Source: Thermodesulfobacteriota bacterium (GTDB lineage Bacteria; Desulfobacterota; Desulfarculia; JACQYL01). From it: a DNA stretch of 64,000 nucleotides. The stretch lies in NCBI GenBank assembly GCA_963675595.2, contig CAXXLZ010000001.1, positions 448,001 to 512,000 of the forward strand, read 5' to 3'. The translations under genes were made by a program, and so were the position numbers. Numbering within the stretch: the first letter of the stretch is position 1; each line of letters begins with the position of its first letter. Shown one piece after another: positions 5,258 through 39,540 of this stretch. The notes beneath the pieces were generated by a model. That model saw nothing but the letters and a program-made list of their open reading frames with translations. It did not search any database and was not told the origin of the DNA.

Positions 5258-8200
5258 TTGCATTCGGACGAGGAACATTATCGCCGTTGGAAAGGGGAAT
5301 TGCAAACGGCCGAGGCCGTGGCGGTCGTGGGACTGGCCGCCCGGCTCCCCGGGGCTTCCGATATCCTGCGGTTCTGGAGGAACCTGGAGTCGGCCAGGGA
5401 CTGCATCACGGAAGTGACCCGTTGGAACCACGAATCGCTGTTTTCAACCAACCGGGAAGAGCCGGGAAAGACTTACTGTAAATGGGGGGGCTTCCTCGAC
5501 AGTGTGGACCGTTTCGATTCGGGATTCTTTCAGGTATCCCCGGCCCAGGCCCTCGAAATGGACCCAAGGCAGCGGCTGTTTCTGGAAGTCGCCTGGGAAG
5601 CCATCGAGAACGCGGGCATACCGGCGAGAGACCTCGCCGGCTCAAAGACCGGTGTGTTCGTGGGGGCTTCGAACAATCAGTACCTTCATCTATGGGGAAG
5701 CTCCGGTCTCGGAAGAATGAACGGTCTGGACAATACCGGCGCCGGTATCGCCAATCGCGTGTCCTTCTTCCTGGATTTGCGGGGACCGAGCACCGCGGTG
5801 GACACCACCTGCTCTTCTTCGATGACGGCGGTTCACACAGCCTGCCGGAGCCTGCTTTCGGGCGAATCGGAAACCGCGCTGGCCGGGGGAGTTCATCTGA
5901 ATCTTCTTCCGGAATATTACCTGACCATGAGCCGGATGCGCCTCCTGGCGTCCGAGGGGAAGCACCGGGTACTGGACCGACGGGCCGACGGCTTCATACC
6001 CGGAGAAGGCGTCGCGGTTGTGGTGCTCAAGCCGTTGGACCGGGCAATCCGCGACGGAGATACGATTCATGCGGTCATTCGGGGCTCGGCCGTGAATTAC
6101 TCCGGCAGGACGGGCCATTTGACGGAGCCGTCCCCGGAGGCCGAGAAGGAGGTGGTGGCCGAAGCCTTGGCCCGGTCGGATGTGGACCCGGAAAGCGTCT
6201 CTTATATCGAGCTCAACGGGGCGGGTACGGTCCTGGGCGATTCCGCGGAGGCCAACGCGCTTGGGGAGATATTCGGCGGGAATCGGAGCGGTCCCCTGTT
6301 CCTGGGCTCGGTGAAGAGCGGCATCGGCAACCTCGAGGCCGCCTCCGGCTTGGTGGGAATGATCAAAGTGATCCTGTCCATGCGTTTCCGAACCTTGCCC
6401 GCCATGCTTCATTTCGAGCAACCCAACCGGTTCGTTCGGTGGCGGGAGCTACCTTTTCAGGTGGTTTCGGAAACCGTACCGTGGGATGAGCGTTGTCGTC
6501 CCTTTCGTGCCGGGGTGAGTTCCTTCGGAGTGGGTGGAGCCAACGTACATGTCGTGCTCGAAGAGTGCCCCCGAGACATGGGAAACAAGGGACTCCCGGG
6601 CACCGTTCACCTATCACGGCCGCGTGAGGTTGATGAACGCCCCAGGCTCTTCGTCTGTTCGGCCCGGTCTCGTGAGGCGCTGAAACAGGGGCTGAGCAGA
6701 CTGTACCAAACGGTGGCGGAACGGATAGGCCCCGACGACCTTGGGAATCTGGCCTACACTCTGGCTGCGGGCAGGGAGCATTTCTCCCATCGTTTGGCCT
6801 GGGTCGTCTCCACCGGGGATGAGCTGCTTTCCGCCATGCGCCGATGCATGGAAACGGAAACATGGGAAAGTCTTTCCGAGGAGGAAGGGTGCTTTTACGG
6901 GGTGGCACCGACAACGAATACAAGGCGAAAAAAATCCTTCCCATGGATGGCCGAGGGAAAAAAGGAGGCGGCATCCGCCCGTCGTAACCCTGAGTTCGTA
7001 TTCGCCTTTGCGGCCTTCCGACCCGAGGATACGGCTTCATGGCGGGATGTGGAGTCTTGCGGAGCACCGGCTTGGATCCGCAAGTCCCTCATGGAACGGA
7101 AAGGCAAGGTGAACGCACTCCTGGACCGCTTTTTGTCGTCTGCGCGAGAGCGAGGCTTCACGCTTTCCAGCCAAGTCGCCGATAAGATCGAATGGGTGCT
7201 TCGAGGCATGGCGTTTCAGGAAACCGCAGCGCGCTTTCTATGGGAACTCGGTGTTCGGCCCGTCCGGACCGTGGCGGTCGGGTGGGGGGAATATGCGAAA
7301 CACTGCTTCGAGAATCCCGATGAATTGGAGACGATCTGCTCGGACTTGATGAACCGGGCGTCCTTGGACGAGCCGTTCATGGGAGAGTCCGATCCGCCTT
7401 TTGGTGTTTCCGACCCTGATGTTTTTGTTTTTTCGCCCGCATCGGTGCTTCGAGGCGGCGAGCTGTTGGGTCGGGCCGCCCGAGCCCACGTGCGGGGAGT
7501 GAGCCTCCGGTGGGAGTTGTCGACGGACGACGGTCTCAAACGCAAGTTGGCGTTACCCTCCTATCCTTTCGAGGGGCGGAGGTATTGGCCCGTTCCGGAC
7601 GGTGTCGAGCCGACAGGATCCGAGGCCTTGGAAGTCGGCGTGGAGAGGGAAGCGGCCGAGAACGCCAACCGCGCTTCGACGGATGTGGGGCCGGTTCGCT
7701 CCGAGGACCTTGCAGAGCGGATTAGTTCCGTTTTCATGCACGGCATGGTGGAGAAACTGGGCTTTCGCCCTGAAGAAATCGATGTGGACCGGCCGTTGGA
7801 GGCCTATGGATTCGACTCCATTTTCCTGGTTTCCTGCCTGGAGGAGTTGGAGCGGTCTTTGGGTGTGGTCATCAGCCGTTTCGAGGTCACGGATGCATCG
7901 ACTCTTCGGGGTATCGTGGAATGTTGCGTCTCCGTGGTCCTTCGGAAAAGTCCTGCTTCGGGCACCATTCGCCACACGTTTTCGGTGGGTACCCGCCGAA
8001 CCGATCGGAACGACTCCGAGGAGAGAATCGCAGTGGTGGGGATGGCGGGACGTTTTCCGGGAGCGGACGACCTGGACGAATACTGGGAGAACCTAATTTC
8101 CGCTCGGGAGTCCATTGTGGAGGTTCCACAGGAACGCTTCGACCTGTCTGCGCTCTACGACCCGGATTCCAGAAAGCCGGGGAAGACGGTCTCGAAATGG

Positions 8201-9307: not shown

Positions 9308-9397
9308 ATGTGAGTCGCGCTTCCGCGGATCGAGGTGTTTCCCATGGACCGCAGCGGAAAAGCATCTCTGCGACTTTGAGGCAAAACGGAGTCCTGT

Positions 9398-10729
9398 TTG
9401 GTTGTTTTGCTGGTGAATCCCAACCGGGTTAAGCCTCTAGTCCCTCCGTTGGGACTGGAATACTTGTCCGATGCGCTGCGCCTTGCCGGGCACGAAGTGC
9501 TTTTCTTCGATCTGGGATTCCGGCCTCCCGCGTCTTTGTTCGAGCTGGTTCGGCGGAAGAAGCCTGACATCATCGGGGTTTCCATCCGAAACCTGGACGA
9601 CGTCACCCTGCTTCGGAAGCACAACTACGTGCCCGGCATCGTCCGTCTGGTGAGGGAACTCCAACGTGTCTCGGATGCCCGGATCGTTCTGGGGGGGGCC
9701 GGCTTCTCGATTCTACCCCGAGAGCTCATGGAAGTCACGGGTGCGGATTTCGGGATTGCCGGTGATGGGGAAGAAGCCATGGTGGGGCTTCTGAACGATC
9801 TCGGTCAACCGCAACATATTCCCCGGGTTTGGTTCCGGGAGGGTGGTCCTTCGGGGCCGGTCCGTTTTTCTTTCGAGGGGCTTTCCGGGTCCTGGGGAGC
9901 CGGTTGCTCGCCACGTTCACTGCTGGACTACGCAGGATATCTGCGTCGAGGGAGTTCGTGCAACGTTCAGACCAAACGAGGTTGCACTCACCGTTGTCTA
10001 TACTGTCCAGAGCCGCGTGTTATGGGACGGATGATGCGGCTGCGCCCCGCGGAAGCGGTTGCGGAGGAGTTCGAAATCCTCGCTTCCATGGGCGTCCGGG
10101 AGCGGGTCTTTTTGGTGGACTCGGAATTTAATCTTGTTGAGGAACATGCCCTGGAAGTCTGTCGGATTCTGACGGAAAGGGCCTCCGGGGTGAAATGGGT
10201 ATGTTCCATGACCCCGAAATACGTGACGGAAGAACTCATCGGCTTGATGAAACGGGCGGGTTGTGACATGGTGATTTGGAGCGTGGACTCCGTATCCGAT
10301 GCAACACTGCAATCCCTGAGAAAAGACGTAGAGGAGACGGATGTTTTTCGAGTGTGCGGCTGGTGCGAAAAGGCGGGCTTGCCTTATTGTCTGGCACTGC
10401 TGCTTGGCGGACCGGCGGAAACGCCGGACACATTGAAGGCAACCTTTCGGAACGCCGGGAAGACTCGGGCGGCGTTTATCGCCGTGGGTGTCGGCTTGAG
10501 AATCTATCCAGGTACCGGTTTGCACGAAGTGGCCTTGGCGGAGGGCCAAGTGACCCGAGAAACGGATTTCCTGCAGCCTGTGTACTATCGAGAAGCTTGG
10601 GTGCGCGACACGTTGATTCCTCTGGTTCGAACGCAGATCGCAGAGGAGAGAAGGGCGGTGATGTTCGGCTCTCGACCGGACGTGACGGTCGAGGCGGAGA
10701 TTCGGAAGGTTTATCCCGTGCCCTTTTGA
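9398..10729 (+). CDS. Cobalamin-binding radical SAM protein (2)
   Basis: LVNPN..PLVPPLGLEYL, IGVSIRNLDD, LGGAGFS, QTKRGCTHRCLYC, DSEFN, GLRIYPGT. Confidence 0.9.
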   Translation: MVVLLVNPNRVKPLVPPLGLEYLSDALRLAGHEVLFFDLGFRPPASLFELVRRKKPDIIGVSIRNLDDVTLLRKHNYVPGIVRLVRELQRVSDARIVLGGAGFSILPRELMEVTGADFGIAGDGEEAMVGLLNDLGQPQHIPRVWFREGGPSGPVRFSFEGLSGSWGAGCSPRSLLDYAGYLRRGSSCNVQTKRGCTHRCLYCPEPRVMGRMMRLRPAEAVAEEFEILASMGVRERVFLVDSEFNLVEEHALEVCRILTERASGVKWVCSMTPKYVTEELIGLMKRAGCDMVIWSVDSVSDATLQSLRKDVEETDVFRVCGWCEKAGLPYCLALLLGGPAETPDTLKATFRNAGKTRAAFIAVGVGLRIYPGTGLHEVALAEGQVTRETDFLQPVYYREAWVRDTLIPLVRTQIAEERRAVMFGSRPDVTVEAEIRKVYPVPF

Positions 10730-10821
10730 ACATGGTGTCGAACCGACCTGAAACAGTCCCCACCAGTAGATCCGAAGTATCCGACCGGACTGCCGACGGC
10801 CTCATCTGAACGGATTCAATC

Positions 10822-12351
10822 ATGATTCAATTCACTTCCTTGGTTCCCAGATGGATCGGTGGAACTTCGCTTTCTCTGGTGGTGCTGCGAAGTTTCCTGC
10901 TTCATCACATGCCTCGGTTGAACATCGGCTATGGAACCTATCTGTGCGACGACGATCCGGAGGAAATCCTCGCGGGCGTCTACTCCCCGGATACGCGGGT
11001 CTACGCCTTCTCGGCGTATATGTGGAACCTCGAACTCACCTTGGATCTATGCCGGCGTCTCAAAGACCGAAATCCTCATTGTTTCGCTTTGCTGGGTGGA
11101 CCCACCGCCTCCTTTTCAGCCGACGCAATCCTGTCCTCGAATCCGTGGGTGGACCTCATTGTCAAGGGGGAGGGAGAGCTTCCTCTGCTGGAGTTGATTT
11201 CACGCATGGACCGAGGGGAGGAGGATTTTTCCGACATTCCCAATCTCGCCTACCGCCTGGACGGCCGACGAGTGGACACCCCGGCCATACCCACCATCCT
11301 CAATCTCGAAGACCAGCATTATGCTTTGGACGTCGACATGTTCGCGGGTGTGTCCACGGTTTATTATGAGACTTCCAGAGGATGCGTGTTCAAATGCCGC
11401 TATTGTTCCTGGAACGTCAACCAGTCGGGGATCAAACGTATCCGGCCGTACCCTCTGGAAAAGGTGATGCGCGAGCTGAGGCTGCTTTTCCGGCAGGAGG
11501 GGCTGGAAATGTTGCTGCTCACGGATTCGAATATTCTCCTGGGGGGCGAGCGGACCAAAGCCGTCTTCTCCGAGATCAACGCGCTCAACCAGGGTCGTCG
11601 AAGCAACGGCCTCCCCATGGTCAAGATCAACTTTGAATTCAATCCGGAGCATCTTACGGACGATCTCCTTCCGGAGATCAAGAAACTGCATGTCGAGAAC
11701 TACCCCATAGGTCTTCAAAGCGTGAATAAGGAGGTGCTCACGGAGGCGGGCCGGCCTTTCCACAGGGATAAGTACCTCGATGGGCTGAACAGGCTGCGAG
11801 AGAAGGCTGGGGCCGCCGTTTTGGTGGAGATTATTTACGGGCTGCCCAAAGATACGTTGGAAGGTTTCAGACGAACTCTTGAGTTTGTCCTGTCGGAGTT
11901 GAAAGCGGAGCTTTTTGTTTGTTACCGGTACTCGGTGCTGCCGGGTTCCGAGTTCTGGGATCGGAAGGAGCGTTACGGAATCCGCCATCTGGACGCGCCG
12001 CCCTATACGATCCTGAGTTCGGACTCCTTCCCGGAAGAAGACTTGGAAAAGGCCCAGGAGTTGGTTTATTACCTTCAGATCATTTACCGGGTCTTTCGGA
12101 GCCTGAAAAAGACCGTGGAAAACTCCGTGGAGGGAGACAAGCTGCCGGTGTATGAAGCGATCATACGCCGGTTTTCCGACAAGTATGGCGAGATACTCCG
12201 CCCCAAACTGATCTATGACGACGGTTTTCTGGACGATGTGGCCCGTTTGCGTTCGCGGGAGTTTTCCGAAACCCGTCGCAAGATGCTCTCCGAGGCCAGG
12301 GAGATCGTCAAAGAATATGCAGCCTCCAGGGAGGCTGAACGGAAATCATGA
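10822..12351 (+). CDS. Cobalamin-binding radical SAM protein (3)
   Basis: FSAYMWN, LGGPTAS, GEGE, YETSRGCVFKCRYC, GLQS, GLPKDT, LPGS. Confidence 0.9.
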   Translation: MIQFTSLVPRWIGGTSLSLVVLRSFLLHHMPRLNIGYGTYLCDDDPEEILAGVYSPDTRVYAFSAYMWNLELTLDLCRRLKDRNPHCFALLGGPTASFSADAILSSNPWVDLIVKGEGELPLLELISRMDRGEEDFSDIPNLAYRLDGRRVDTPAIPTILNLEDQHYALDVDMFAGVSTVYYETSRGCVFKCRYCSWNVNQSGIKRIRPYPLEKVMRELRLLFRQEGLEMLLLTDSNILLGGERTKAVFSEINALNQGRRSNGLPMVKINFEFNPEHLTDDLLPEIKKLHVENYPIGLQSVNKEVLTEAGRPFHRDKYLDGLNRLREKAGAAVLVEIIYGLPKDTLEGFRRTLEFVLSELKAELFVCYRYSVLPGSEFWDRKERYGIRHLDAPPYTILSSDSFPEEDLEKAQELVYYLQIIYRVFRSLKKTVENSVEGDKLPVYEAIIRRFSDKYGEILRPKLIYDDGFLDDVARLRSREFSETRRKMLSEAREIVKEYAASREAERKS

Positions 12352-13892: not shown

Positions 13893-13989
13893 CGACGGCT
13901 GATCGTCGACGGTCCACTGGCGCGGTTCGATCCCTGAAGGATCGAAATCCGGATCGTACGGTGCCGACACTCATTCGGGAGAGAGGAAC

Positions 13990-14397
13990 TTGGAAGTCAG
14001 GTCAAGAGAGGAAATTCTCGAAGAACTCAAGCTGATCATCGCGGAGATTACCGGTTACGATCCCGAGGAACTCCATGAAGAAGATTCTCTCAGCGAGGAC
14101 ATCGGCATTGAGTCTTTTGATATTGTGGACATCAACTTTCGGGTGGAGGAAACGTTCGGGGTCGAAATGGGGGACAAGGTATTTTGGAATTTCCGAGACT
14201 TGTTCGGAGACCCCGATCTCATAGACGAAAACAACAATCTGACCTTGGCGGGAATCCAAGAGGTGAAGCGGCGTGTGCCCAATCTGGATCCCGATGGGAC
14301 TTTAGAAAATCGGGGAACGGTCAATTTCTCGGATATGTTGGCTCAAGTGAAGGTGCGGCATTTCGTCGATTTCCTCGAACAGAGTCAACGCGGGTGA
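13990..14397 (+). CDS. Extended (135 aa) acidic acyl carrier protein
   Basis: Phosphopantetheine motif variant IGIESFDIVDINFRVEETFGV, plus a ~50-aa insertion before the last helix. TTG start with GAGAGG RBS. Confidence 0.8.
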   Translation: MEVRSREEILEELKLIIAEITGYDPEELHEEDSLSEDIGIESFDIVDINFRVEETFGVEMGDKVFWNFRDLFGDPDLIDENNNLTLAGIQEVKRRVPNLDPDGTLENRGTVNFSDMLAQVKVRHFVDFLEQSQRG

Positions 14398-14662
14398 CAA
14401 CTCGAATCCTCATGGGAAAATCACCTTGGGATGGAATTTCCGAGAGCCGGTTCCGGTAGACCTTGCCGGGCAATCAAAGGCGCTCTTATGGAGGCAAAGT
14501 CGTTCATGCGAAGTTTTGGCCAAGAGCGTTGCCCAATGGTGCCCCGACTCTTGTCCGGCTTGAGAGGCTTCACGTCCTTCCCCGCTTTCGGACTCTTATG
14601 GATGGGGCCGGCGGCCGAGCGTGCGCTTCGAGCTCTTCTTTTCGAGGACCTTTCGCGTGCCG

Positions 14663-15793: not shown

Positions 15794-15955
15794 TCATTCG
15801 GATGAAAGTATTCCAAAGCCGGCGGTGGTTTTCTTGGGACGTTTGCCGGTGCGGCGGGGTTTCAGCCAGGCCGGCGCCGCGAGAGACCGGTCCGGGGGGT
15901 CGGTAGGGCATCCGCGTGGAACCATCGGCAAATTGTTGGTCACTGAAATGGGCTT

Positions 15956-17296: not shown

Positions 17297-17357
17297 ACCC
17301 GCTTAGAGGCACACGTTCGTCGCGAACCGTTTTCCGTTGTGTCGGCAAGGGGTTGTG

Positions 17358-18725
17358 ATGAGAATGCTTTGCATCTGCCCCGGGGTTTCCCGGGCGTACA
17401 TGGCCCATGTGCGTTCCATCGCCCGAAGGGGTTGGGATCATGCGGCGTTCTTAGAGAGGGACGTAAAGCGCCACGGCCGGCATGTGAAGCGTGTGTTTTA
17501 CGGTCTGGGCCTGCTCACGCTGGTTTCTTCTCTTCCCCAAGGAACCGATGTCGTCTTCGTGGACGAGAACCTGGAAAAGGGTCCTTTGGAGACGATTTAC
17601 AGGGAGGACTACGATCTCGTGGCTCTCACGGGACAAGTGATTCAGGCGGAACGAACGCTGGAGCTGGCGGCTCGGTTTGTTGAGCGAAACATCCCCGTGG
17701 TGGTGGGAGGCGTGCACGCCTCCGTCTTCCCGGAGGATTACGAGGCGTTGGGCGTATCCGTGGTGTGCGGGGAGGGGGAAGGCCTGTTCCAGGAATATCT
17801 GGCTGATCTGGAACGGGGTGAAACACGTTCCGTCTATCGAAAGGACCCCAAGGACTGCGTCGACCTGTCCACGATTCCGGATCCCGTGTTTTCCCATGTC
17901 TCCGGGAACCGCTACAGTTTGATGGGGGTGCAGACCACGCGCGGATGTCCTTACCGGTGTCGCTACTGCAATGTCTCCGCCATGCTGGGGGATCGCTATA
18001 GGCATCGACCGGTGGAGCGGGTTCGACAAGAAGTCGTTGAAGTCAAACGGCGATGGCCGGACGCCATGTTCTACTTCTTCGACGACAACCTTTTCGCAGA
18101 TACGGAATATGCGCTCGAATTGTTCGAATCTCTGGCGGACCTGGATCTGGGAATCTGGGGGACTCACGCGGACGTTTCCATTGCGGAGAACAAGGAGTTG
18201 CTTCGTCTGCTGACACGAAACGGCAGACCTTTCCTGGCTATTGGATTCGAAACGCTTTCGGAGACCAACGCCAAGGCTCTGGGGAATCCGGTCAAGGCCG
18301 GAGCGGTAAACGACTTGGGCCGTCGTGTGGACAAGCTACGAAACGCGGGAATCGACGTGGGGGGGTCCTTCATGTTCGGGTTTCCGGGAGACACGGCGCG
18401 TGAGCTGGAACGGATCGTGAGTTTTGTTCAAGAACACGGGATTCGAGGCTATATTACCCGATACTCGGCCATACCGGGTTCCGCCATGTATGAGGATCTG
18501 GTCCGGGAAATCGAGGATGTCCGGGGACCCATTCCGGTTCACGGCACCGAGCGGGCCCGGCTGGTCAATGAGTACCTCGGAGAAACCGTGTCCGATCAGC
18601 GAACGGACTCGGAAGGCATGATCGTCGATGCCTTGAAAGCGGCCTACGCCAAAGAACTCCCTCTCTCCCAGATCGACGCCCTGGCGGTGTATCGGTGCTT
18701 CTTCGAATCTCCGGGTCATGGCTAA
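17358..18725 (+). CDS. Cobalamin-binding radical SAM protein (5), paralog of 3866-5221
   Basis: LGLLTL, VDENL, VVVGGVHAS, QTTRGCPYRCRYC, FFDDNLFAD, IGFET, SFMFGFPGD. Confidence 0.9.
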   Translation: MRMLCICPGVSRAYMAHVRSIARRGWDHAAFLERDVKRHGRHVKRVFYGLGLLTLVSSLPQGTDVVFVDENLEKGPLETIYREDYDLVALTGQVIQAERTLELAARFVERNIPVVVGGVHASVFPEDYEALGVSVVCGEGEGLFQEYLADLERGETRSVYRKDPKDCVDLSTIPDPVFSHVSGNRYSLMGVQTTRGCPYRCRYCNVSAMLGDRYRHRPVERVRQEVVEVKRRWPDAMFYFFDDNLFADTEYALELFESLADLDLGIWGTHADVSIAENKELLRLLTRNGRPFLAIGFETLSETNAKALGNPVKAGAVNDLGRRVDKLRNAGIDVGGSFMFGFPGDTARELERIVSFVQEHGIRGYITRYSAIPGSAMYEDLVREIEDVRGPIPVHGTERARLVNEYLGETVSDQRTDSEGMIVDALKAAYAKELPLSQIDALAVYRCFFESPGHG

Positions 18726-19422
18726 AAAACGAGAGTTGGACGCCGAGGTCCTTTCGGCGCTGAGACAGGAGGTCCCGGTCTTTCTGCCCCGGGGGACGGG
18801 GCTGGGGGTGATCCATTCGGCGAACCTGGGAAACTTCGTTCTCGACCCTTTGGAGGCCGACTGCCTGAGCAGGCAGGCCGGTGAGAAGCGAAGAACGGAA
18901 TTCGCCCTGGGAAGGGCTGCGGCTCACGAGGCCCTGAGCCGGATCGGACTCGACAGTGGGCCGGTTCTCAAAGGGAAACGTGGAGAGCCGCTGTGGCCGG
19001 GTAACGTGACGGGCTCCATCAGCCATAAGGGAGGGGCGGCCGTGGCCTTGGCCGGGTCTCGAAACCGGTTCCGTTGGCTGGGCATCGACCTGGAAAGCGA
19101 TTTGGATCCCATTTCTCCGGGCATCGCCCGCCGTATTTGTACTTCCGTCGAGGGATCATGGCTGTACTCCCGCCCCCAGTTGGTTTCGCGGCGTATCCGA
19201 ATGGTTTTCTCCGCCAAGGAATCCGTGTTCAAGGCGGTGAACCAGGCAGGCGGCGTGTTTCTGGGGTTTCAGGATATGGAGCTGTCATGGTCGGGAGACG
19301 AGAGCTGTTTCGAGGCCCGGCTTTCCGAGAGAAAATCGGCAAAGGGGGGGATACCTCGAACCATGGCGGGCCGTTGTTTCCGAAGGCCGGGGGTCATCAT
19401 GACTTTTTTGGCGGTGTCCTGA
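18718..19422 (+). CDS. 4'-phosphopantetheinyl transferase (EntD/Sfp type)
   Basis: KRRTEFALGRAAA, GEPLWP, GSISHK, LGIDLE, FSAKESVFKA. Confidence 0.92.
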   Translation: MAKKRELDAEVLSALRQEVPVFLPRGTGLGVIHSANLGNFVLDPLEADCLSRQAGEKRRTEFALGRAAAHEALSRIGLDSGPVLKGKRGEPLWPGNVTGSISHKGGAAVALAGSRNRFRWLGIDLESDLDPISPGIARRICTSVEGSWLYSRPQLVSRRIRMVFSAKESVFKAVNQAGGVFLGFQDMELSWSGDESCFEARLSERKSAKGGIPRTMAGRCFRRPGVIMTFLAVS

Positions 19423-19426
19423 ACTC

Positions 19427-20416: not shown

Positions 20417-20429
20417 ACCGGGGGAATCC

Positions 20430-22447: not shown

Positions 22448-22451
22448 TCGC

Positions 22452-23594
22452 ATGGACCTCGAACCGAAACAATCCGAGCAGGACCGAATCCGGGAAATCC
22501 GGCGGATCTGCGGGGAATATCTGGAACCCCTTGCATCGGCCATGGACCGCTCGGCTGATTTCCCTTTGGAAACCCTGAAGCTTCTGGGTGAATTCGGCTT
22601 CTTGGGTCTTCAGGTTCCGGAGGAATACAAAGGCTGCTTCTCAGGGGATGCGTATTATTACTCGGTCATCGAAGCCATGGCCGAAACGAGTCCGGCGCAT
22701 GCGCTCACCGTGATTTCTCATTCCTTGTGCTGTCGCTTGATCAGGGACTTCGGCACGGATTCCCAGAAAGCGGCCTATCTGTCCGGCCTGGCCACGGGCC
22801 GGATCATGGGCGCCGTATGCATGACCGAAGCGGGAGCGGGATCGGATTTGAACTCCATACGAACTCGGGCGGTAAAGCGAAAGAACCGCTACGTGATTGA
22901 TGGGCGAAAGCTCTTTATCACCAACGGCGGTTTCGCGGACGTCTTCGTGGTCCTGGCGTCTACGTCGGATCAAGACGGGCCCTTTACCAAGAGTCTGTTT
23001 ATTGTTCCTAAAACGTCCAAGGGTATCCGTTCGGGGAAAAAAGAGATGAAGCTGGGCTTCCGGGGAGCGGATACTCGAGAAGTGATTCTGGACGGAGTGG
23101 ACGTGCGGTCGGACCTTCTGCTGGGCCGGGAAGGAAACGGATTGATCCAGATGGCGCGTGCCATGGAAGGATCGCGATTGGCCGTGGCGGCCATGGCCTT
23201 GGGACTTGCGGAACGGTCTCGGCGGCTGGCGCTGAAAAGCGTTCGATTCCAGGAAAAAGACGGGACTTCCGAGGCGGTGCTGGAGGGTCATCGAATGCTG
23301 TTGGCGGAGACGGCCACGGAGATCATGTGCGTGCGTTTGCTGATCAAAAGGGCCGCGGAAGTCCAGGCGGAAGGAAAACCCGTCACGGACCTGGCGGCCA
23401 TGGCCAAATGGTTTTCCGCCGAAACGGCGATGCGGGCCGCATCGAATACGCTCCAAATCTTGGCGATGACGGAGGACCGCCACCACCGGGAAGCGGAGCG
23501 GCTCTTTCGGGACGCCAAGTTGTGCGGCATCATCGAAGGCACCACGGAAATCCAGAAAAAGATCGTGGCCCGCTTCGCATTTACGGGTGATTGA
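22452..23594 (+). CDS. Acyl-CoA/acyl-ACP dehydrogenase
   Basis: CMTEAGAGSD, GRKLFITNG, KLGFRG, AMAKWF, FRDAK, IIEGTTEIQ (catalytic Glu retained). Confidence 0.93.
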   Translation: MDLEPKQSEQDRIREIRRICGEYLEPLASAMDRSADFPLETLKLLGEFGFLGLQVPEEYKGCFSGDAYYYSVIEAMAETSPAHALTVISHSLCCRLIRDFGTDSQKAAYLSGLATGRIMGAVCMTEAGAGSDLNSIRTRAVKRKNRYVIDGRKLFITNGGFADVFVVLASTSDQDGPFTKSLFIVPKTSKGIRSGKKEMKLGFRGADTREVILDGVDVRSDLLLGREGNGLIQMARAMEGSRLAVAAMALGLAERSRRLALKSVRFQEKDGTSEAVLEGHRMLLAETATEIMCVRLLIKRAAEVQAEGKPVTDLAAMAKWFSAETAMRAASNTLQILAMTEDRHHREAERLFRDAKLCGIIEGTTEIQKKIVARFAFTGD

Positions 23595-23731
23595 TCGCGG
23601 CGCACATTGCAGTAACGAGGGACACGGCGCGAAGCATCGCATCGTGTTAACCGACGGCCCACCAATAGGTGGCCGGCCCTTGACGAACACCGGAGGCGCG
23701 TACGGCTGCGAATAAGGACGGGAACGACTCG

Positions 23732-25300
23732 TTGCATTCAACGGTCTCCTTCTTGGAGGACGCCGCCGAGGAATATTCGGGAAAGACCGCATTGATGGGA
23801 GCCGGTCGAAAGACCACCTATGCGGAGTTGCGGGCCGGCGCCCGCCGGTTTTCGGAGGCTCTTCAAAGCGGGGGGGTGAAGCCCGGGGCCAGAGTCGTGC
23901 TGAGCTTCACCCGTGAAACGGAATTCGTCCAAGCCTATTGGGGAGCCCTTCTGGCTTCGGCGATTCCCGTGTTGGTGAGCGCGGCGATGCCTCCCTCCAA
24001 GCTGGAATACGTGATCAACGACTCGGGCGCGGCAGCCTTCGTTGGTGCCGAGGCCGCGTTCAAGGCACTGCCCGAGCCTCCCTCGTCGCTGAAGACCGCT
24101 TTGCTGATTTGTGGAGGCGCGGGTGGGCCGGAGAGAGGCTTCCAAATCGAGATTCCGAACAGCGGCGTGAATGTGCATCGGCCGGACGGGGGGGCCCCGG
24201 AATCTCCCGGTGAACGGGAAGGGATTCCGGGATTCACCTGTATTTACACTTCGGGAACCACGGGCCGACCCAAGGGGGTCATGCTTTCGGCAACCAACAT
24301 CCGGTACGGAACCCGCATGATCCGGGAGTTCTTGGCCCTCGGTCCGGAAGACCGGAGCCTTCCGGCCATGCCGTTCACCCATTGTGCCGGACTGCTCCAC
24401 CTCCTCGCCCTTCTCGAGACGGGGGGGGCGGTGGTCACGGGATTTGCACCGGCATTGCCCGGTTCTTTCCTCAACGCCGTGAGGGATTTGAAGGTGACCG
24501 TCCTGCCGGTGGTTCCGGCGATGATGACCTTGCTTCTCAGCCGTTACGGAAGAGACCTGCCGGAGCGGTGTCGATCCCTCAGGGTGATGGAGTTCTCCAG
24601 CGCTCCGTTGGCGCCGTCCCTGGTGCGGGAGGTTCGCGGACTGCTTCCGCAGGTTGATCTGTTCAATACTTACGGCCTCACCGAGGCACCCAGAATCACC
24701 TACGCCCGCCTCGAAAGCGAAGAGGGCGACGAGGACCATGTGGGACGGGTGAATCCGGAGCTGACCGTGTTCATCGACCGATCCGCAAACCCTTCCGACA
24801 AGGTGGGGGAGGTTTGCGCGCAAGGGCCCAATGTGGCCGAGGGCGGCTATTGGAACGGTTCCGCGGGCGGTGACGCGCGGTTTTCTTCCAACGGGTTCCG
24901 CACCGGTGACTTAGGTTGGCTGGATGAGGAGAACCGGTTGCATCTCGCCGGGAGATCCGACGATCTGTTCAAGGTGGGAGGAGAAAACGTCTATCCGGAG
25001 GAGATCGAACGGGTCATTTCGTCAATGAAGGGGATATCGGACGCACGGATCGATGCGGTCGAAGACCCCTTGCTCGGCACGCGCATCGTTGCACGCGTGG
25101 TCGGATGTTCCCCCGAAGTGACCGCGAAAGCCGTTTCCGCGTATTGCCTGCGTCATCTCGAACGCTTCAAGGTCCCTTCCCGGATCGATTTTGTCGAAGA
25201 AATTCCACGGACGGAGTCGGGCAAGCACTCCCGGTCCCGGTCTCGTGTTGACTCGGACCCCTGCAGGTTCGGCGGATCCAACGGGAACGGGTCGGCCTAG
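23732..25300 (+). CDS. AMP-dependent acyl/aminoacyl ligase (stand-alone adenylation enzyme) 1
   Basis: YTSGTTGRPKG, YGLTE, FRTGD, GRSDD, PRTESGK. Confidence 0.93.
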   Translation: MHSTVSFLEDAAEEYSGKTALMGAGRKTTYAELRAGARRFSEALQSGGVKPGARVVLSFTRETEFVQAYWGALLASAIPVLVSAAMPPSKLEYVINDSGAAAFVGAEAAFKALPEPPSSLKTALLICGGAGGPERGFQIEIPNSGVNVHRPDGGAPESPGEREGIPGFTCIYTSGTTGRPKGVMLSATNIRYGTRMIREFLALGPEDRSLPAMPFTHCAGLLHLLALLETGGAVVTGFAPALPGSFLNAVRDLKVTVLPVVPAMMTLLLSRYGRDLPERCRSLRVMEFSSAPLAPSLVREVRGLLPQVDLFNTYGLTEAPRITYARLESEEGDEDHVGRVNPELTVFIDRSANPSDKVGEVCAQGPNVAEGGYWNGSAGGDARFSSNGFRTGDLGWLDEENRLHLAGRSDDLFKVGGENVYPEEIERVISSMKGISDARIDAVEDPLLGTRIVARVVGCSPEVTAKAVSAYCLRHLERFKVPSRIDFVEEIPRTESGKHSRSRSRVDSDPCRFGGSNGNGSA

Positions 25301-25302
25301 GC

Positions 25303-26247
25303 ATGGTCGTCGATTTCCACGTTCATTTATTCGACCACGACTGGCTCCCTCGTCGTTGGTGGAAGGCCATGGAGGACTTTCACGAGCGGAGAGGCCCGAT
25401 CAAAGGCCTGGGCAAACCTTTCGATATGGGAGAATACTGCGATCCCTCGGGCGAACGTTTAGTCCGGGAGATGGATGAGGCAGGCATCGACCACAGCGTG
25501 GTGTTTCCTTTGGACGTGGGTCTACTGCTGGGAGAGCCCCCGGTTTCCATACGGAAGCAGAACGAACTCCTCGCGGATGTGGCCCGCAGGTATCCTTCAA
25601 GGATTACGGCCTTTTTCGGAGTGGATCCACGAAGACCAGGGGCCGTTGAATGGATCGAAGCCGGCATCCGAGAGTGGGGCATGGGAGGCGTGAAATTTCA
25701 TCCGGGCTCGGGGTTTCACCTAAGTCGGGAGGAGTTCTTTCCCGTGCTGGAACGAATCGCCGATCTCGGGGTCCCTTTGGTAACGCATACCGGACCCGCT
25801 TTCGGACCTCTGGACGGCAGCGGCTGCGATCCCATGGAACTCGACAAGGCTTTGGGACGCATTCCCGGGCTCAAGATCGTGGCCGCCCATCTGGGCGGTG
25901 GACGGGTGGACGAGCTGTGCTGGTTGGGCGCCATGAAGGAAAGTCTTTATGCGGACATCTCCCTCCGGCAGCTCGAATGTCGCCGGAACCCCGAGGCGTT
26001 CGCTGAGACATTGAGAAAGGCCCTGGATTTCATGGGGCCCGACCGGATTCTATTCGGTACGGACTGGCCGTTTTCCCGAAAGGCGATGGCGGCGGGAGCG
26101 TATGTTCGAGCTCTTCGGGAGTTTTCCCGCGGCTCGTCGGCCGTTCTGCTCTCCGGTGAAATCAAACGATTGCTGGGGGGTAACGCCCTCCGGCTTCTGG
26201 GAAAAAAAGGAGAGGCTCTTCAGCGTGGATATCGAGTCGACACGTGA
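25303..26247 (+). CDS. Amidohydrolase family 2 metalloenzyme
   Basis: DFHVH, GVKFHP, HTG, AAHLG, ILFGTDWP, GGNA. Confidence 0.88.
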   Translation: MVVDFHVHLFDHDWLPRRWWKAMEDFHERRGPIKGLGKPFDMGEYCDPSGERLVREMDEAGIDHSVVFPLDVGLLLGEPPVSIRKQNELLADVARRYPSRITAFFGVDPRRPGAVEWIEAGIREWGMGGVKFHPGSGFHLSREEFFPVLERIADLGVPLVTHTGPAFGPLDGSGCDPMELDKALGRIPGLKIVAAHLGGGRVDELCWLGAMKESLYADISLRQLECRRNPEAFAETLRKALDFMGPDRILFGTDWPFSRKAMAAGAYVRALREFSRGSSAVLLSGEIKRLLGGNALRLLGKKGEALQRGYRVDT

Positions 26248-26482
26248 ATCGGTTTATAGGTTTATACGGGATGAAATGAACCATGGAGAGGAGTTTCCTC
26301 TGGAGACCGACCTGATTCAACAGGGGCTGATCGACTCCATGGGCGTGATGAAACTTATCGGCTTCCTTGAAACGACCTTCGGCATCCAGATCGAATTGGA
26401 CCGGGTAAGCGCGGAGCATTTTCAGTCCGTGGGGGCCGTGGCGGATCTGGTGGCCTCATGCGAGAAGGGCGAGACTGCGTGA
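26225..26482 (+). CDS. Stand-alone acyl/aminoacyl carrier protein
   Basis: DLIQQGLIDSMGVMKLIGFLETTFGI. GTG start at 26225 after AGGAGAGG; the ORF-track start at 26102 is likely too long. Confidence 0.88.
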   Translation: MDIESTRESVYRFIRDEMNHGEEFPLETDLIQQGLIDSMGVMKLIGFLETTFGIQIELDRVSAEHFQSVGAVADLVASCEKGETA

Positions 26483-26751
26483 TGATGGAAAGAGAAGGGG
26501 TCCTTGCCCTGATCGAAGAGTTTATCAGGGATACGTGCAACATCCCGGCAGACACTCCCGGATTCACCAGATCGTGCGATCTTTTTGAGGAAGGGTTCGT
26601 GGATTCCATGGCCCTGGTGAGGCTCGTCGCTTTCCTGGAATCCGAATTCGATGTTGAAATCGAAGAAGAGAATTTATTCGACGAGCGCTTCCTGACCATC
26701 GAAGGACAGGGAGACTTGGTCCTGGAACTGAAGAATTCAGTGGGGCGGTAA
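26482..26751 (+). CDS. Stand-alone acyl/aminoacyl carrier protein
   Basis: DLFEEGFVDSMALVRLVAFLESEFDV. TGATG coupling to the previous ACP. Confidence 0.88.
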   Translation: MMEREGVLALIEEFIRDTCNIPADTPGFTRSCDLFEEGFVDSMALVRLVAFLESEFDVEIEEENLFDERFLTIEGQGDLVLELKNSVGR

Positions 26752-27073
26752 GGCGAGGACGGAAGAACGTCCGAGCCTGTCATGAGTTCGCTGCACCCCC
26801 GATAGGATGCGCGTTTGGGTCGTCCTTGGACGCTTCCATGAGCCTCGTCCTCGATTTGGAGCCTCGGTCCCGTGAGGGCGGGCCATAGTCCCCGTCCTGC
26901 GCGCAAGAACACACAGATACCGAGAGTCCCCTTAGGATACGGCGGAGTTGGGAGAACAGTCACGATTCCGGCGTCCGATTCTTTCCTGATGGATGTTTCA
27001 AATGTATTATTCCCCGACCACTCCGTGGACGCGCACCTGAAAGGGTTCATGGCAAGCTGTGGTGAGGTCATCC

Positions 27074-30067
27074 ATGTCGGCTGACATGAGTCACCGGGAC
27101 ATTGCCGTCATCGGCATGGCGTTTCGTTTGCCCGGAGGAGACGATCCGGAGGTTTTCCGGGATCGGCTTCTTGCGTCGGAAGACTGCCTGGGAACGTGGC
27201 CGGATTCCATCCGCAGCGGTGCGCGGGGTCCCGTGAGGCCTGCCGGAATCATCCAAGGAGTCGACCTGTTCGACGCTGCGTATTTTGGAATCGCTCCTCG
27301 CGAAGCCGCCTTGACGGATCCAAGGCGGCGTTTGGTTCTCGAGATGTCCGCCACCGCGCTGGAGACCTGCGGCTATGGAGGAGATCGTCTTCGAGGTTCC
27401 GACACCGGGGTGTTCCTCGGCGTGAGCAACAATGGAGACTACGGCACCGGGGGCGCCGCCGGGGGCTTGGGAGCACTCAACGTATCGGACGCCATGATCG
27501 CTCACGAGGTGTCCCGATTCTTTGATTTCACGGGACCCAGCCAGGTGGTGGACACCCTCTGTTCTTCGGCCTTGGCGGCGGTGCACCAAGCCTGTTGCGC
27601 CTTGCGGGAAGGTCGTTGCTCAACGGCTCTGGCCGGAGGCGTCAGCCTGCTTCTTTCGGTGAGTCATTTCGAAGCCCTGGAAGGCATGGGACTGCTGTCG
27701 CGATCCGGAAAATGTCGAACCTTCGACGTGGATGCCGACGGATTCGTCCTGGGAGAAGGCGTGGGCGTGTTTCTCCTGAAGTCTTTGAAAGCCGCACTTC
27801 GAGACGGGGACCCGCTTTGGGGCGTGATCAAAGGCGGTGCCGTGGCTTTCAACGGGCGTGGAGAACACCCCTTGGCCCTGCGTGCCGAAGCGGTGGAGCG
27901 AGTGGTGACGCGGGCCATGAGGGACGCGGGGACCGCTCCGGCCGCCATCTCCTTTATCGAAACCGCCGGAACCGGGACCCCCATGGGAGACGCCGCCGAG
28001 GTTCGAGGGCTGCGTTCGGCCTTTGGTTCCGCGGTCGGTAAGGCACCTTTCTGTGGATTGGGAGCCGTGAAGACCCGTGTGGGCAACCTCGAAGCGGCCT
28101 CGGGGATTGCCGCACTGGTAAAGACTTTGTTGATGATGCGGGGGAAATTCATTGCGGCGAACCTGAACTTCCATCGTGTGAATCCGCTTATCCGGCTCAA
28201 AGGATCGCCCTTCCGTCTCTGCAACGAGCTCGACGAATGGACGACGGCCAACCGGGCGCCCAGGAGGGCGGGAGTTTCCGCTTTGGGCATAGGAGGAGCT
28301 CATTACCACCTGATCCTGGAGGAGCCGCCTTCGGAAGGGTTTACCCTGGGACCGAGTCGACCGCGAACATCCGAGCCGCTCTTGCTGTGCCTTTCGGCCG
28401 GGAGCCTTTTCCAACTCAGAGAGCTTTGCCGCAGGTACCGGCGCAGGCTCGAGGATCTTTCGGAATGCACGCCCGAGGAGCTTTGTCACACCCACAACAC
28501 CGGAAGCGGAGATCTGCCGGTTCGGCTGGCCTTGACCGCCCGAGACGGGGAGGAACTTATTGGCCTTCTGAAGCGGGGCGAGTTCGACGACCCCGTGCCC
28601 CGACACGGTTTGGAGGGCATGTTCTTCCACGACGGTTACGCTGGGGATATCCGAAGGAAACGGAACCCCCTCAAAGATCTTCGTTCTCCGAGCGGTGAGG
28701 GCGGGCGGGCCGATCCCGAACGCCTTGCCGGACGAACCGGACTGATTCAGGGTGATTTGGTGTCGTGCGAACATCCCGAGACTGCACTCCAATCCATCGG
28801 CGTTTCGCTCGGTGAATGGGGGGTCAGGGTGGGCCCTTCGATAAGCGCTGCGGCCGGCGACACGCAGCCCGACGCCGAGGCGATGGTGCCGGACCGCCTG
28901 CGCGAATGCGTCTCCCGAGGTATTCGCACTTTTGTAACCATGGGGCTGTCGGACGATTTTCGCAACCGGATTTCGGAAGAGGTGCCGGAAGCGTTTCTGA
29001 TTCCGTGGCCCGGCTCGGGCGCCGATCTTATGGAGCGCAGGCGTCTCGCGGCCGCACTTTACGCACATGGCGCCCGTCTCGATTTCGAAATGCTTCAGGG
29101 GAGCGGCAACCTTCGCAAAGCGATGTTGCCGCCGTACCCTTTTGCCCGGAAATCTTTTTGGAGAACGGCTCCCGATGATGGGCTGCATAAGGCTTCGCCG
29201 GCCGGGACTTGTGCTGCGGAGAGGATTTCACCTGAAGACCTCGCCGGGATGCCCCCATCGGAGTTGAAGGAACGGGTGGAGGGCTTTCTGAGGGAGGCGG
29301 CCTGCGAAAGCGCGGGCTTGGATTGCGGGAAAGAAGAGATCGTGCTCTTCTCGGATTGGTGCTTGGACTCACTGGCGCGCGTTCAACTCGCCCGTCGGGT
29401 CGAGTCTCGGTTCGGAGTCCGCATTGACCTTCAGGCGTTTCTGCGGCATGACCACGTGGCTCTGCTGGCCGAATACGTGGTGGGCCGGATTCGGTATGGG
29501 AGCGTGGAAAAGCCCGTGGAGCCCCGAGAGGATGATCATCGGGCTCGGGTCATCCTGGAGACGGCTTCCGCCGCTCATTGGGAGGCGGTGCGTGCCTGGC
29601 TGAACGACGAGGGAGTCAACCAGTGGCTGGATCCGTTTTTCCAGGAAGGATTCGGCGCTCGAGAATACGCCTACTTCCTGAAACAACGGGATCGGAATAC
29701 CTGGGTCATCGTGGAGGACGGAATTCCGGTGGGAATCTGCGGGCTGGTCCAGGTGGACCTGCGCAACCTCGGCGCGGAAACCTGGATCGTGGTGGGCGAC
29801 CTCTCGGCGCGTCTCAGGGGTGCGGCCGTTGCCGCGGGCGAAGCTTTGTGTGGAAAGGCGTTTCTTGAATTGGGCCTAAGAACCTTGAACGCCAAGGTGA
29901 GATGGGACAATGTTCCCGCCTTGGAAATGACGGAGTACTCGGGTTGGAGGCGGGTGGGCACCCTTAGAAACTCCCTGAAGGTGGGAGATGCCTTCCACGA
30001 CAGGGAGCTTTTCGAACTGACCCGTGAGGATTTCGAGGACCGGCGGAATCGAGGCGAAACTCCATGA
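27074..30067 (+). CDS. Type I PKS-like protein: KS0 - eroded AT - ACP - C-terminal GNAT (RimJ/RimL-like)
   Basis: KS has TDPRRR, DTLCSSA, ETAGTGT and KTRVGNLE. Then LPPYPFARKSFW and an ACP (WCLDSL). The C-terminus (AFLELGLRTLNAKV..DN..ALEMTEYSGWRRVGTLR) is typical of RimL-type GNATs. Confidence 0.88.
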   Translation: MSADMSHRDIAVIGMAFRLPGGDDPEVFRDRLLASEDCLGTWPDSIRSGARGPVRPAGIIQGVDLFDAAYFGIAPREAALTDPRRRLVLEMSATALETCGYGGDRLRGSDTGVFLGVSNNGDYGTGGAAGGLGALNVSDAMIAHEVSRFFDFTGPSQVVDTLCSSALAAVHQACCALREGRCSTALAGGVSLLLSVSHFEALEGMGLLSRSGKCRTFDVDADGFVLGEGVGVFLLKSLKAALRDGDPLWGVIKGGAVAFNGRGEHPLALRAEAVERVVTRAMRDAGTAPAAISFIETAGTGTPMGDAAEVRGLRSAFGSAVGKAPFCGLGAVKTRVGNLEAASGIAALVKTLLMMRGKFIAANLNFHRVNPLIRLKGSPFRLCNELDEWTTANRAPRRAGVSALGIGGAHYHLILEEPPSEGFTLGPSRPRTSEPLLLCLSAGSLFQLRELCRRYRRRLEDLSECTPEELCHTHNTGSGDLPVRLALTARDGEELIGLLKRGEFDDPVPRHGLEGMFFHDGYAGDIRRKRNPLKDLRSPSGEGGRADPERLAGRTGLIQGDLVSCEHPETALQSIGVSLGEWGVRVGPSISAAAGDTQPDAEAMVPDRLRECVSRGIRTFVTMGLSDDFRNRISEEVPEAFLIPWPGSGADLMERRRLAAALYAHGARLDFEMLQGSGNLRKAMLPPYPFARKSFWRTAPDDGLHKASPAGTCAAERISPEDLAGMPPSELKERVEGFLREAACESAGLDCGKEEIVLFSDWCLDSLARVQLARRVESRFGVRIDLQAFLRHDHVALLAEYVVGRIRYGSVEKPVEPREDDHRARVILETASAAHWEAVRAWLNDEGVNQWLDPFFQEGFGAREYAYFLKQRDRNTWVIVEDGIPVGICGLVQVDLRNLGAETWIVVGDLSARLRGAAVAAGEALCGKAFLELGLRTLNAKVRWDNVPALEMTEYSGWRRVGTLRNSLKVGDAFHDRELFELTREDFEDRRNRGETP

Positions 30068-31623: not shown

Positions 31624-31675
31624 AATACTTCCCGCGGCGTATGGGCAAAAAGGGAGTGGTCGATTGAAACGAGGT

Positions 31676-39524: not shown

Positions 39525-39540
39525 CCGAGGAAATTCTCCA

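Follow-up and report, generated by a model that had tools for sequence, protein, structure and literature searches.

Three ketosynthase domains with altered active sites

We analysed a gene cluster in a 64,000-nucleotide stretch of DNA from a Thermodesulfobacteriota bacterium (contig CAXXLZ010000001.1, positions 448,001 to 512,000). The whole stretch is called the window here, and all coordinates are positions within it. The cluster spans 3866-32980 on the + strand and comprises 21 genes, and Pfam detected ketosynthase (KS) domains in only two of them. The products of both genes also carry an acyl carrier protein (ACP) domain:

5258..9307, + strand: KS1-linker-ACP1-KS2 protein, 1349 amino acids (Pfam, translation, alignment to solved structures)
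~5312-6577, + strand: KS1, active-site positions C185/N320/N358
~7751-7924, + strand: ACP1
~8021-9301, + strand: KS2, active-site positions C1092/G1227/H1266
27059..30067, + strand: KS3-linker-ACP2-GNAT protein, 1002 amino acids (Pfam, translation)
~27095-28336, + strand: KS3, active-site positions C168/A303/N343
~29288-29479, + strand: ACP2
~29546-29944, + strand: GNAT domain

Canonical ketosynthases carry a Cys/His/His (C/H/H) triad. At these positions, KS1 carries Cys/Asn/Asn, KS2 Cys/Gly/His and KS3 Cys/Ala/Asn. Translation of KS1 gives the motifs DTTCSSS (Cys185, codon at 5810), ELNGAGT (from 6209; Asn320, codon at 6215) and IGN (Asn358, codon at 6329). The motifs of KS2 are DTACSSS (Cys1092, codon at 8531), EAGSTGS (from 8930; Gly1227, codon at 8936) and IGH (His1266, codon at 9053), and those of KS3 are DTLCSSA (Cys168, codon at 27560), ETAGTGT (from 27959; Ala303, codon at 27965) and VGN (Asn343, codon at 28085). 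The Pfam ketoacyl-synt N and C domains were detected, and Cys185, Cys1092 and Cys168 each lie inside a DTxCSS motif. The register of the motifs was fixed by alignment to solved polyketide synthase (PKS) ketosynthases. Against 7zma, 'syielNgagt' of KS1 pairs with 'syleaHgtgt' and 'ksgigNlea' with 'ksnigHces', so that Asn320 and Asn358 stand opposite both catalytic His residues. Against 4qyr, 'yveaGstgs' of KS2 pairs with 'yveaHgtgt' and 'nigHaea' with 'nigHaes', which places Gly1227 opposite the first His and His1266 opposite the second. The nearest solved relatives are ketosynthases of PKSs without integrated acyltransferases (AT-less or trans-AT PKSs), with 7zma in first place (2.2e-227), followed by 4qyr and PksL. 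A KS-AT-type linker separates KS1 from ACP1 (Pfam).

The motifs and coordinates listed in the original prediction were all reproduced by translation and structure alignment. It had also described a system containing only non-elongating ketosynthases (KS0), and this description holds for the cluster: in Pfam scans of its larger open reading frames (ORFs) and most of the remaining window, no KS beyond these three and none with a C/H/H triad was found. All three domains have lost the His of the HGTGT motif and retained the Cys, which by this sequence criterion assigns them to the non-elongating type.

The conservation of the altered sites was assessed in relatives of both proteins. With the KS1-ACP-KS2 protein as query against a collection of 5.8 billion proteins, 7999 candidates were scored, and among the best 120 of these, eight protein clusters share the KS1-ACP-KS2 architecture and the altered sites. 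One of them (P0003) is 94% identical to the window protein and truncated at the N terminus, and the other seven (P0004, P0007, P0008, P0010, P0011, P0012 and P0013) are 40-53% identical. A profile search with the ortholog alignment returned the identical eight clusters and added none. All of these relatives derive from metagenomes or metagenome-assembled genomes (MAGs) and bear no given names, and the family is small. For the KS3-ACP-GNAT protein, 8000 candidates were scored and the best 120 contain four like relatives, namely the partial P0123 with 94% identity and P0124, P0125 and P0126 with 41-43%. In a search of representatives with residues 1-1200 of the KS1-ACP-KS2 protein, the summed scores of giant multimodular PKSs dominate, which permits no family count; P0003 was the sole ortholog among the best 150 listed. 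In a scan of genome contigs with generic KS motifs as patterns, as chosen from the whole-protein alignment, only one of 80 kept loci (L001) is an ortholog.

All 11 KS1 domains have the Cys and carry Asn at the position of the second His, and the first His has given way to Ser in seven of them and to Asn in four. The KS2 orthologs all keep the Cys and the second His and all carry Gly-Ser in place of His-Gly (11/11 each). In KS3, the Cys and the change of the second His to Asn are found in 6/6 domains, with Asn (4) or Ala (2) at the first His; the Ala carriers are the window and its 94% relative only. The Cys is thus invariant across all 28 family domains. All three types also retain the Lys of the SVK motif. 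KS1 (11/11) and KS2 (11/11) keep the gating Phe of the GFGG motif as well, and it is substituted in five of the six KS3 domains. It is Leu in the window (~28274-28282), Cys in P0124, P0125 and P0126 ('ACGIGG') and Phe in the ortholog from a Desulfobacula MAG. A Cys at this position presumably resembles the CxGGG base motif of thiolases; it is not conserved. A C-terminal extension corresponding to a KS-AT linker is present in six of the eight KS1-ACP-KS2 proteins that were aligned. Four or five of these six extensions contain a GS..G motif (GSRWG in two), which P0012 lacks, at a position that we take to be the site of the AT nucleophile motif.

To place the three domains among other ketosynthases, we collected 411 KS domains that cover more than 380 positions of the KS hidden Markov model (HMM) from all proteins and loci gathered up to that point. 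Shorter pieces were excluded, among them KS1 of P0003 and the fragments of L091 and L094. By triad, the 411 domains comprise:

C/H/H 322; Q/H/H 18; C/G/H 11; C/N/N 10; C/H/N 10
C/S/N 9; C/Q/H 9; C/A/H 5; C/M/H 4
C/N/H 2; C/S/H 2; C/A/N 2; C/Q/N 2; singletons 5

Outside the family, the first His is missing in 29/383 domains, even though part of the set had been selected by pattern for an odd motif. The second His is retained in 22 of these 29, and the six non-family C/x/N domains all come from a scan that required this motif. Judged against these counts, the loss of the first His in all three domains and in all of their orthologs is more than chance would be expected to give. Replacement of the second His by Asn was also observed in ordinary multimodular PKS contexts of metagenome loci outside the family, scattered over the KS tree. 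These are C/H/N in L095, L099, L102, L103, L106, L107, L111, L113, L116 and L117, C/Q/N in L097 and L098, C/N/N in L101 and L104, C/S/N in L096 and L109, and S/H/N in L119; the loci surfaced because the scan pattern demanded 'GN'. The repeated occurrence of this change could reflect a separate functional subtype of KS.

Two trees of the 411 domains were calculated, one from an HMM-guided alignment (hmmalign) and one from an independent MAFFT alignment. In both trees, KS1, KS2 and KS3 form exclusive clades with support of 0.998, 1.0 and 1.0, respectively. Both also place KS1 and KS3 as sister paralogs, with support of 0.90 (hmmalign) and 0.995 (MAFFT). None of the three clades is nested within the sampled trans-AT C/A/H, C/Q/H and C/M/H domains. 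The original prediction had pointed to three different substitutions. The residues do differ between the three domains, but the changes are not three independent events of one kind, because KS1 and KS3 as sister paralogs share the Asn at the second His. In a comparison with positions conserved in at least 90% of the 322 C/H/H domains, KS2 departs at the His-Gly pair only, while KS1 is additionally altered at G234, C236, F239 and T322, and KS3 at Y127, Q279 and P312.

Taken together, the sequences support the view that the altered sites are under selection rather than in decay, since ORFs of >1,000 codons are intact at 40-53% identity and the Cys, the Asn (KS1 and KS3) and the Gly-Ser (KS2) are invariant. 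This agrees with what had been proposed for the window alone, and the orthologs likewise carry altered sites instead of intact C/H/H triads. Synonymous divergence (dS) was saturated; it was undefined in five of six pairs and 2.55 in the sixth (window versus L092, nonsynonymous divergence 0.53). Assuming that the domains were decaying remnants of a formerly elongating PKS with functionless altered sites, a varying residue at the first His, as seen in KS1 (Asn or Ser) and KS3 (Asn or Ala), would be expected. It is very improbable, however, that decay would leave the long ORFs intact in every lineage, keep identical deviations at this level of divergence, yield exclusive and well-supported clades, and preserve the synteny that is found across the Desulfobacula MAG, the unrelated genome of the window and metagenome contigs.

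Gene content and distribution of the cluster

The KS genes are embedded in the following set of genes:

2674..3246, - strand: cob(I)alamin adenosyltransferase, BtuR/CobO family (Pfam PF02572, 3e-24)
3866..5221, + strand: rSAM1, B12-binding radical S-adenosylmethionine (SAM) protein (Pfam Radical_SAM and B12-binding)
9398-10729, + strand: rSAM2, B12-binding radical SAM protein (Pfam)
10822-12351, + strand: rSAM3, B12-binding radical SAM protein (Pfam)
12348-13892, + strand: rSAM4, B12-binding radical SAM protein (Pfam)
13990..14397, + strand: ACPa, free carrier protein of 135 amino acids with a C-terminal extension (PP-binding, 4.3e-9)
14621-15793 and 15956-17296, + strand: HGD-D family pair, 2-hydroxyacyl-CoA dehydratase/benzoyl-CoA reductase-like (PF06050, 2e-55 and 3e-50)
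17337..18725, + strand: rSAM5, B12-binding radical SAM protein (Pfam)
18718..19422, + strand: Sfp-type phosphopantetheinyl transferase (Pfam 4PPT_N and ACPS)
19427-20416, + strand: hyp1, candidate GNAT-fold-like acyltransferase (no Pfam match)
20367-21383, + strand: hyp2, PP-loop ATPase resembling the WbuX amidotransferase (weak PP-loop matches)
21380-22447, + strand: SAM-dependent methyltransferase (Pfam)
22452-23594, + strand: acyl-CoA/ACP dehydrogenase (Pfam)
23732-25300, + strand: AMP1, adenylate-forming ligase (Pfam)
25303-26247, + strand: Amidohydro_2 protein (Pfam)
26102-26482, + strand: ORF whose ACP part is ACPb (PP-binding, 2e-5)
26458-26751, + strand: ACPc (PP-binding, 6e-6)
30064..31623, + strand: AMP2, adenylate-forming ligase, nearest to adenylation domains of nonribosomal peptide synthetases (NRPSs)
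31523..32980, + strand: pyridoxal phosphate (PLP)-dependent decarboxylase (best solved relative BtrK, which decarboxylates L-glutamyl-[ACP])
36432..40707, + strand: HlyD protein, ABC ATPase and two FtsX permeases, a MacB-type exporter (Pfam)

The cluster encodes five carrier proteins, two embedded (ACP1 and ACP2) and three free (ACPa, ACPb and ACPc). No AT, ketoreductase (KR), dehydratase (DH), enoylreductase (ER), thioesterase (TE), NRPS condensation or ATP-grasp domain was found in the cluster by Pfam, nor was AT, KR, DH, ER or TE found in most of the remaining window.

Of the neighbours of the KS domains, the decarboxylase is the most informative. It matches BtrK (2j66/7ru7) at 9e-84 with 285 bits, compared with 204 bits for the best diaminopimelate decarboxylase, and scores 375.9 bits against TIGR03099 (cut-off 478); it is therefore BtrK-like by sequence, and its substrate is predicted by likeness. 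BtrK, CtaF and FlvO are described as decarboxylating amino acids only once these are tethered to a carrier (PMC11350588). VinO likewise acts on aminoacyl-ACP in the vicenistatin starter pathway, in which a hydrolase, a transferase that works between carriers and a second adenylating enzyme also take part (PMC11284099). In the window, the decarboxylase gene adjoins AMP2, and the free carriers ACPb and ACPc are encoded within the same gene block. The best solved relative of AMP2 is the A domain of LgrA (1.3e-47), with 185.8 bits against TIGR01733, below the cut-off. For AMP1 it is oxalate-CoA ligase (4e-49), with malonyl-CoA ligases also near. Within NCBIfam, the two ligases and the decarboxylase come nearest to the 'exosortase A system-associated' models TIGR03098 (ligase) and TIGR03099 (decarboxylase), all matched below cut-off. 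The orphan cassette of ligase, ACP and decarboxylase that is associated with exosortase A may share the BtrK-type logic. An ORF on the - strand just downstream of the cluster (34096-35034) has a weak PEP-CTERM-like C-terminal motif (19 bits, cut-off 20.7).

Among the radical SAM proteins, rSAM2 reaches 297.9 bits against the NCBIfam family TIGR04072, 'lipid biosynthesis B12-binding/radical SAM protein', which is below the cut-off of 360, and the remaining four give 56-87 bits. The cob(I)alamin adenosyltransferase gene is divergent and precedes rSAM1 by 620 bp; its product possibly supplies the cofactor, cluster membership being suggested by its position. Rfam and tRNA scans of the window gave no matches, including no cobalamin riboswitch at the Rfam gathering score. 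The HGD-D pair gave NCBIfam matches to HadB/HadC and to benzoyl-CoA reductase subunits, all under cut-off, and no activator ATPase for it was found in Pfam scans of the cluster and most of the window.

ACPa is 54-65% identical to its counterparts in L092, L093 and L129. ACPb was considered as a carrier of ornithine-lipid synthesis (OlsH/I) and rejected (43 bits, cut-off 130); the planctomycete OlsH/I pathway is described as dependent on a GH3-like enzyme. The GNAT domain of the KS3 protein has amine N-acetyltransferases as its nearest, weak solved relatives (E ~1e-4), and a function as CurA-type malonyl-ACP decarboxylase was rejected on this basis. As a lead only, the nearest ESM Atlas clusters of hyp1 are GNAT families (score 0.96, 193 shared features). 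The product of hyp2 scores 52.7 bits against TIGR03573 (cut-off 203) and has no firm family match. The closest solved relatives of the Amidohydro_2 protein are LigW/ACMSD-type decarboxylases (5e-10). The exporter genes follow the cluster at a distance of 3.5 kb. L092 (4554-5243) and L093 (3-341) encode an ABC ATPase of 42% identity upstream of rSAM1, which hints that the exporter is linked to the cluster and that the product is exported.

The gene order is conserved beyond the window. On contig 286 of a Desulfobacula MAG (G041), 18 of the 21 window cluster genes are collinear with the window at 33-54% identity; the series begins with rSAM2 and ends with the decarboxylase. A single gene on this contig matches the rSAM3/rSAM4 pair of the window, and ACPb and ACPc are adjacent in the same order. 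Its rSAM1 and KS1-ACP-KS2 genes are found on a separate 3-kb contig (contig 116, L001). Beyond the decarboxylase, contig 286 ends with an additional ACP and a truncated rSAM1-like gene (L128, 1-2114). This arrangement is consistent with a cluster that is circularly permuted in the MAG, the two contigs being neighbours. As in the window, the KS1-ACP-KS2 gene is immediately preceded by rSAM1 in L092, L093, L094 and L001. L092 and L093 show the ABC ATPase, rSAM1, KS1-ACP-KS2, rSAM genes, ACPa and the HGD block up to the end of the contig DNA examined. In L093 (12178-14664), the two HGD-D genes appear as one open frame of ~828 codons, a possible fusion of the subunits.

The cluster is very rare in the genomes sampled, and its distribution is patchy. 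A KS with altered sites was found in 0/40 relatives of the window's genome. With rSAM3 as probe (E <= 1e-80), only the window's own genome was recovered among 401 genomes sampled from its phylum, and with an rSAM3-type probe only the Desulfobacula MAG itself among 301 genomes sampled from its order; these probes scored 3-5 first-look candidates per genome, so an ortholog among the many radical SAM paralogs could be missed. A second cluster copy in the window's genome was considered and rejected. The rSAM3 paralog on contig 2 (3225942-3227225, - strand; L132 and L134; 36% identical, E 1e-86) stands alone, with no other cluster gene within 20 kb on either side. The patchy distribution together with the conserved gene order in unrelated lineages suggests horizontal spread of the cluster. 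In the literature searched, which did not extend to supplementary cluster tables, neither a cluster nor an active site of this kind was found described.

Acyl transfer as the proposed function

It seems fairly likely, judging from sequence, that the three KS domains are functional, Cys-dependent, non-decarboxylating transacylases that are incapable of condensation and serve an undescribed thiotemplated pathway. Five carriers, two loading ligases and many trans-acting tailoring enzymes, together with the lack of malonyl-loading and beta-processing functions, lead us to this reading. KS transacylation requires the Cys and a backbone oxyanion hole, and decarboxylative condensation requires the two His residues (PMC9006962). 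Domains without the HGTGT motif are treated as non-elongating KS0 (PMC5772238), and the KS0 domains of trans-AT PKSs are described in bimodules whose tethered chain is modified by enzymes acting in trans (PMC10952193).

We infer the catalytic steps, the substrates and the order of events from the observed site changes, conservation, gene content and synteny. An acyl group would be transferred from a carrier-protein thioester onto the KS Cys and from there to another thiol or to an amine, the His pair for malonyl decarboxylation and C-C bond formation having been lost. Free carrier proteins would be charged with an acid and with an amino acid by the two adenylating ligases, and the BtrK-like decarboxylase would convert the tethered amino acid into an omega-aminoacyl thioester. 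Intermediates would be shuttled among the five carriers by the KS domains and, in the tethered state, tailored by the trans-acting B12-radical SAM enzymes along with the HGD-like pair, the dehydrogenase and the methyltransferase. The pieces might be released or joined through amide formation by the GNAT domains or by KS1 and KS3 themselves. That the KS1-ACP1-KS2 gene lies among four radical SAM genes suggests that KS1 and KS2 could be 'in' and 'out' gates around ACP1. Similarly, KS3-ACP2-GNAT may handle the omega-aminoacyl thioester and amide formation, as its neighbours (the ligases, the BtrK-like decarboxylase and the free ACPs) suggest. In enacyloxin biosynthesis, a KS0 reportedly passes the chain from an ACP to a separate peptidyl carrier protein, and KS homologs of the nonactin pathway are said to form C-O bonds.

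Several observations weigh against a role in acyl transfer alone. Independent lineages are few (~7-9 for KS1/KS2 and ~4-5 for KS3) because near-duplicate rows are included, with L093 close to P0012, L001 to P0013, L092 to P0007/P0008, and P0003 and P0123 to the window. The residue at the first His drifts among orthologs, so no specific replacement has been selected there. The extra changes of KS1 and KS3 at otherwise conserved positions would fit a new activity as well as weakened catalysis. KS2 joins KS1 and KS3 with support of 0.84 in the hmmalign tree but is deep and unresolved in the MAFFT tree; since its position depends on the alignment, a common origin of all three types is not claimed. 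Malonyl-ACP could be supplied in trans by FabD of primary metabolism. Finally, simple loss of function does not explain the invariant Asn at the site of the second His. In C/H/N condensing enzymes, Asn can stabilise the enolate or donate the same hydrogen bond, and KS1 and KS3 might therefore form C-C or C-N bonds in a non-canonical manner.

Of these two outcomes, formation of C-C bonds by KS1 and/or KS3 would proceed either by decarboxylative condensation with an Asn oxyanion hole or by a thiolase-like, non-decarboxylative Claisen or Dieckmann reaction of substrates bound to carriers. The invariance of the change from the second His to Asn, in KS1 as in KS3, suggests that Asn is wanted rather than tolerated, and Asn also occupies the first-His site in 4/11 KS1 and 4/6 KS3 domains. 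The same change recurs independently in ordinary PKS modules (10 C/H/N domains), where it is compatible with working modules, and three of the six KS3 domains have the Cys in 'ACGIGG' with its presumed likeness to thiolases. We nevertheless consider C-C bond formation unlikely: no family member has the first His, and the cluster is devoid of an AT, a malonyl-loading function and beta-carbon processing domains. The additional Cys cannot be essential, as the window KS3 (Leu) and the Desulfobacula ortholog (Phe) do without it, and the review cited above assigns condensation to the two His residues (PMC9006962).

The other outcome, that KS1 and KS3 (Cys/x/Asn) constitute a new type I KS catalytic class that forms C-N bonds via acyl-S-Cys, appears doubtful. 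If true, the amine of the omega-aminoacyl-ACP made by the decarboxylase could be acylated, for example. The cluster would then represent a new thiotemplated assembly line, independent of NRPS condensation domains and of PKS elongation, in which KS-fold domains are the joining or gating catalysts and the B12-radical SAM enzymes perform the chemistry-bearing steps.

The KS domains might also be architectural, with a near-idle Cys. They would serve as dimerisation or docking platforms, or KS1 and KS2 would form a pseudo-heterodimer resembling a KS and chain length factor (KS/CLF), that presents intermediates to the radical SAM enzymes. Two KS domains share a polypeptide whose gene has four B12-radical SAM genes around it, which is compatible with this function. 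In anammox bacteria, a triad-mutated FabF and an intact FabF are described as a functional heterodimer encoded in a cluster with radical SAM enzymes (bioRxiv 10.64898/2026.05.19.726425), and one trans-AT PKS oxygenase is described as requiring its KS0 for activity (PMC10952193). On the other hand, the invariant Cys of the 28 family domains makes an architectural role quite unlikely. In the account given of the anammox protein, FabFmut has lost its Cys, and chain length factors are described as being without the Cys-His-His triad, unlike the Cys-bearing family domains. In addition, a partner whose triad is intact is missing from the cluster.

Large trans-AT PKSs are known to contain non-elongating ketosynthases as occasional passengers, whereas here they are the sole ketosynthases of a conserved cluster. 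What is new is that non-elongating ketosynthases, two of them with a Cys/x/Asn site, are the only ones in a conserved, AT-less and radical SAM-rich thiotemplated cluster. Transacylation as the preferred function points to a pathway that reuses the KS fold purely as a cysteine transacylase, or perhaps as a catalyst of amide formation. Confirmation would extend the known roles of the KS fold and provide a genome-mining rule for a type of cluster that KS-based detectors may file as an ordinary PKS. It would also point to an uncharacterised, probably exported, metabolite of anaerobic sediment bacteria.

Comparison with known systems

Several known classes of altered condensing enzymes differ clearly from the window domains. 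A KS-CLF heterodimer consists of a Cys-less partner and a C/H/H ketosynthase; all three window domains keep the Cys and none is C/H/H. Enzymes of the KAS III and chalcone synthase type have a Cys-His-Asn triad. Compared by this description, KS1 and KS3 share the Asn at the third site and lack the His. The window domains also belong to the type I KS fold subfamily, unlike KAS III and thiolases, and the thiolase-like second Cys occurs in three of the six KS3 orthologs and not in the window.

The anammox 'ladderane' cluster (FabF2/FabFmut, amxACP) is similar in that KS homologs with altered triads are described beside B12-type radical SAM enzymes and a dedicated ACP. Of the radical SAM proteins in the window cluster, rSAM2 is nearest to TIGR04072, yet it stays below the family cut-off. 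The anammox proteins are described as type II FabF enzymes, of which one keeps C/H/H, the mutated one has lost the Cys, and the pair decarboxylates malonyl-ACP. In contrast, the window domains are of type I, all bear the Cys and none has the first His.

The KS0 domains of trans-AT PKSs resemble the window domains in their type I KS fold, the retained Cys, the loss of the HGTGT His, the ACP that follows and the trans-acting tailoring enzymes around them. KS2 (C/G/H) fits their usual C/x/H pattern. The second His is kept in KS2 only; with Asn358 and Asn343 in its place, KS1 and KS3 go beyond the classic KS0 pattern. A further difference is that no elongating module, trans-AT gene or processing domain was detected in the cluster by Pfam.

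In its remaining gene content, the cluster resembles the aminoacyl-carrier pathways of butirosin (BtrI/J/K), vicenistatin (VinL/M/N/O/K/J), fluvirucin and closthioamide (CtaD/E/F/G), with which it has adenylating enzymes, stand-alone carriers and a BtrK-like PLP-dependent decarboxylase in common. A second ligase and a hydrolase-fold protein adjoin in the cluster as well. The hydrolase here belongs to Amidohydro_2, a fold that VinJ presumably does not have. Also unlike these pathways, the cluster contains neither an ATP-grasp protein nor a downstream elongating PKS. Closthioamide is described as the product of an NRPS-independent thiotemplated assembly in which a cysteine transacylase moves acyl groups between carriers and an aminoacyl-carrier decarboxylase takes part (PMC7183216), which makes it a functional precedent for the proposed transfer. 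The proposed transfer catalyst of the window cluster would have a KS fold, in contrast to the acyltransferase VinK and the papain-like CtaG.

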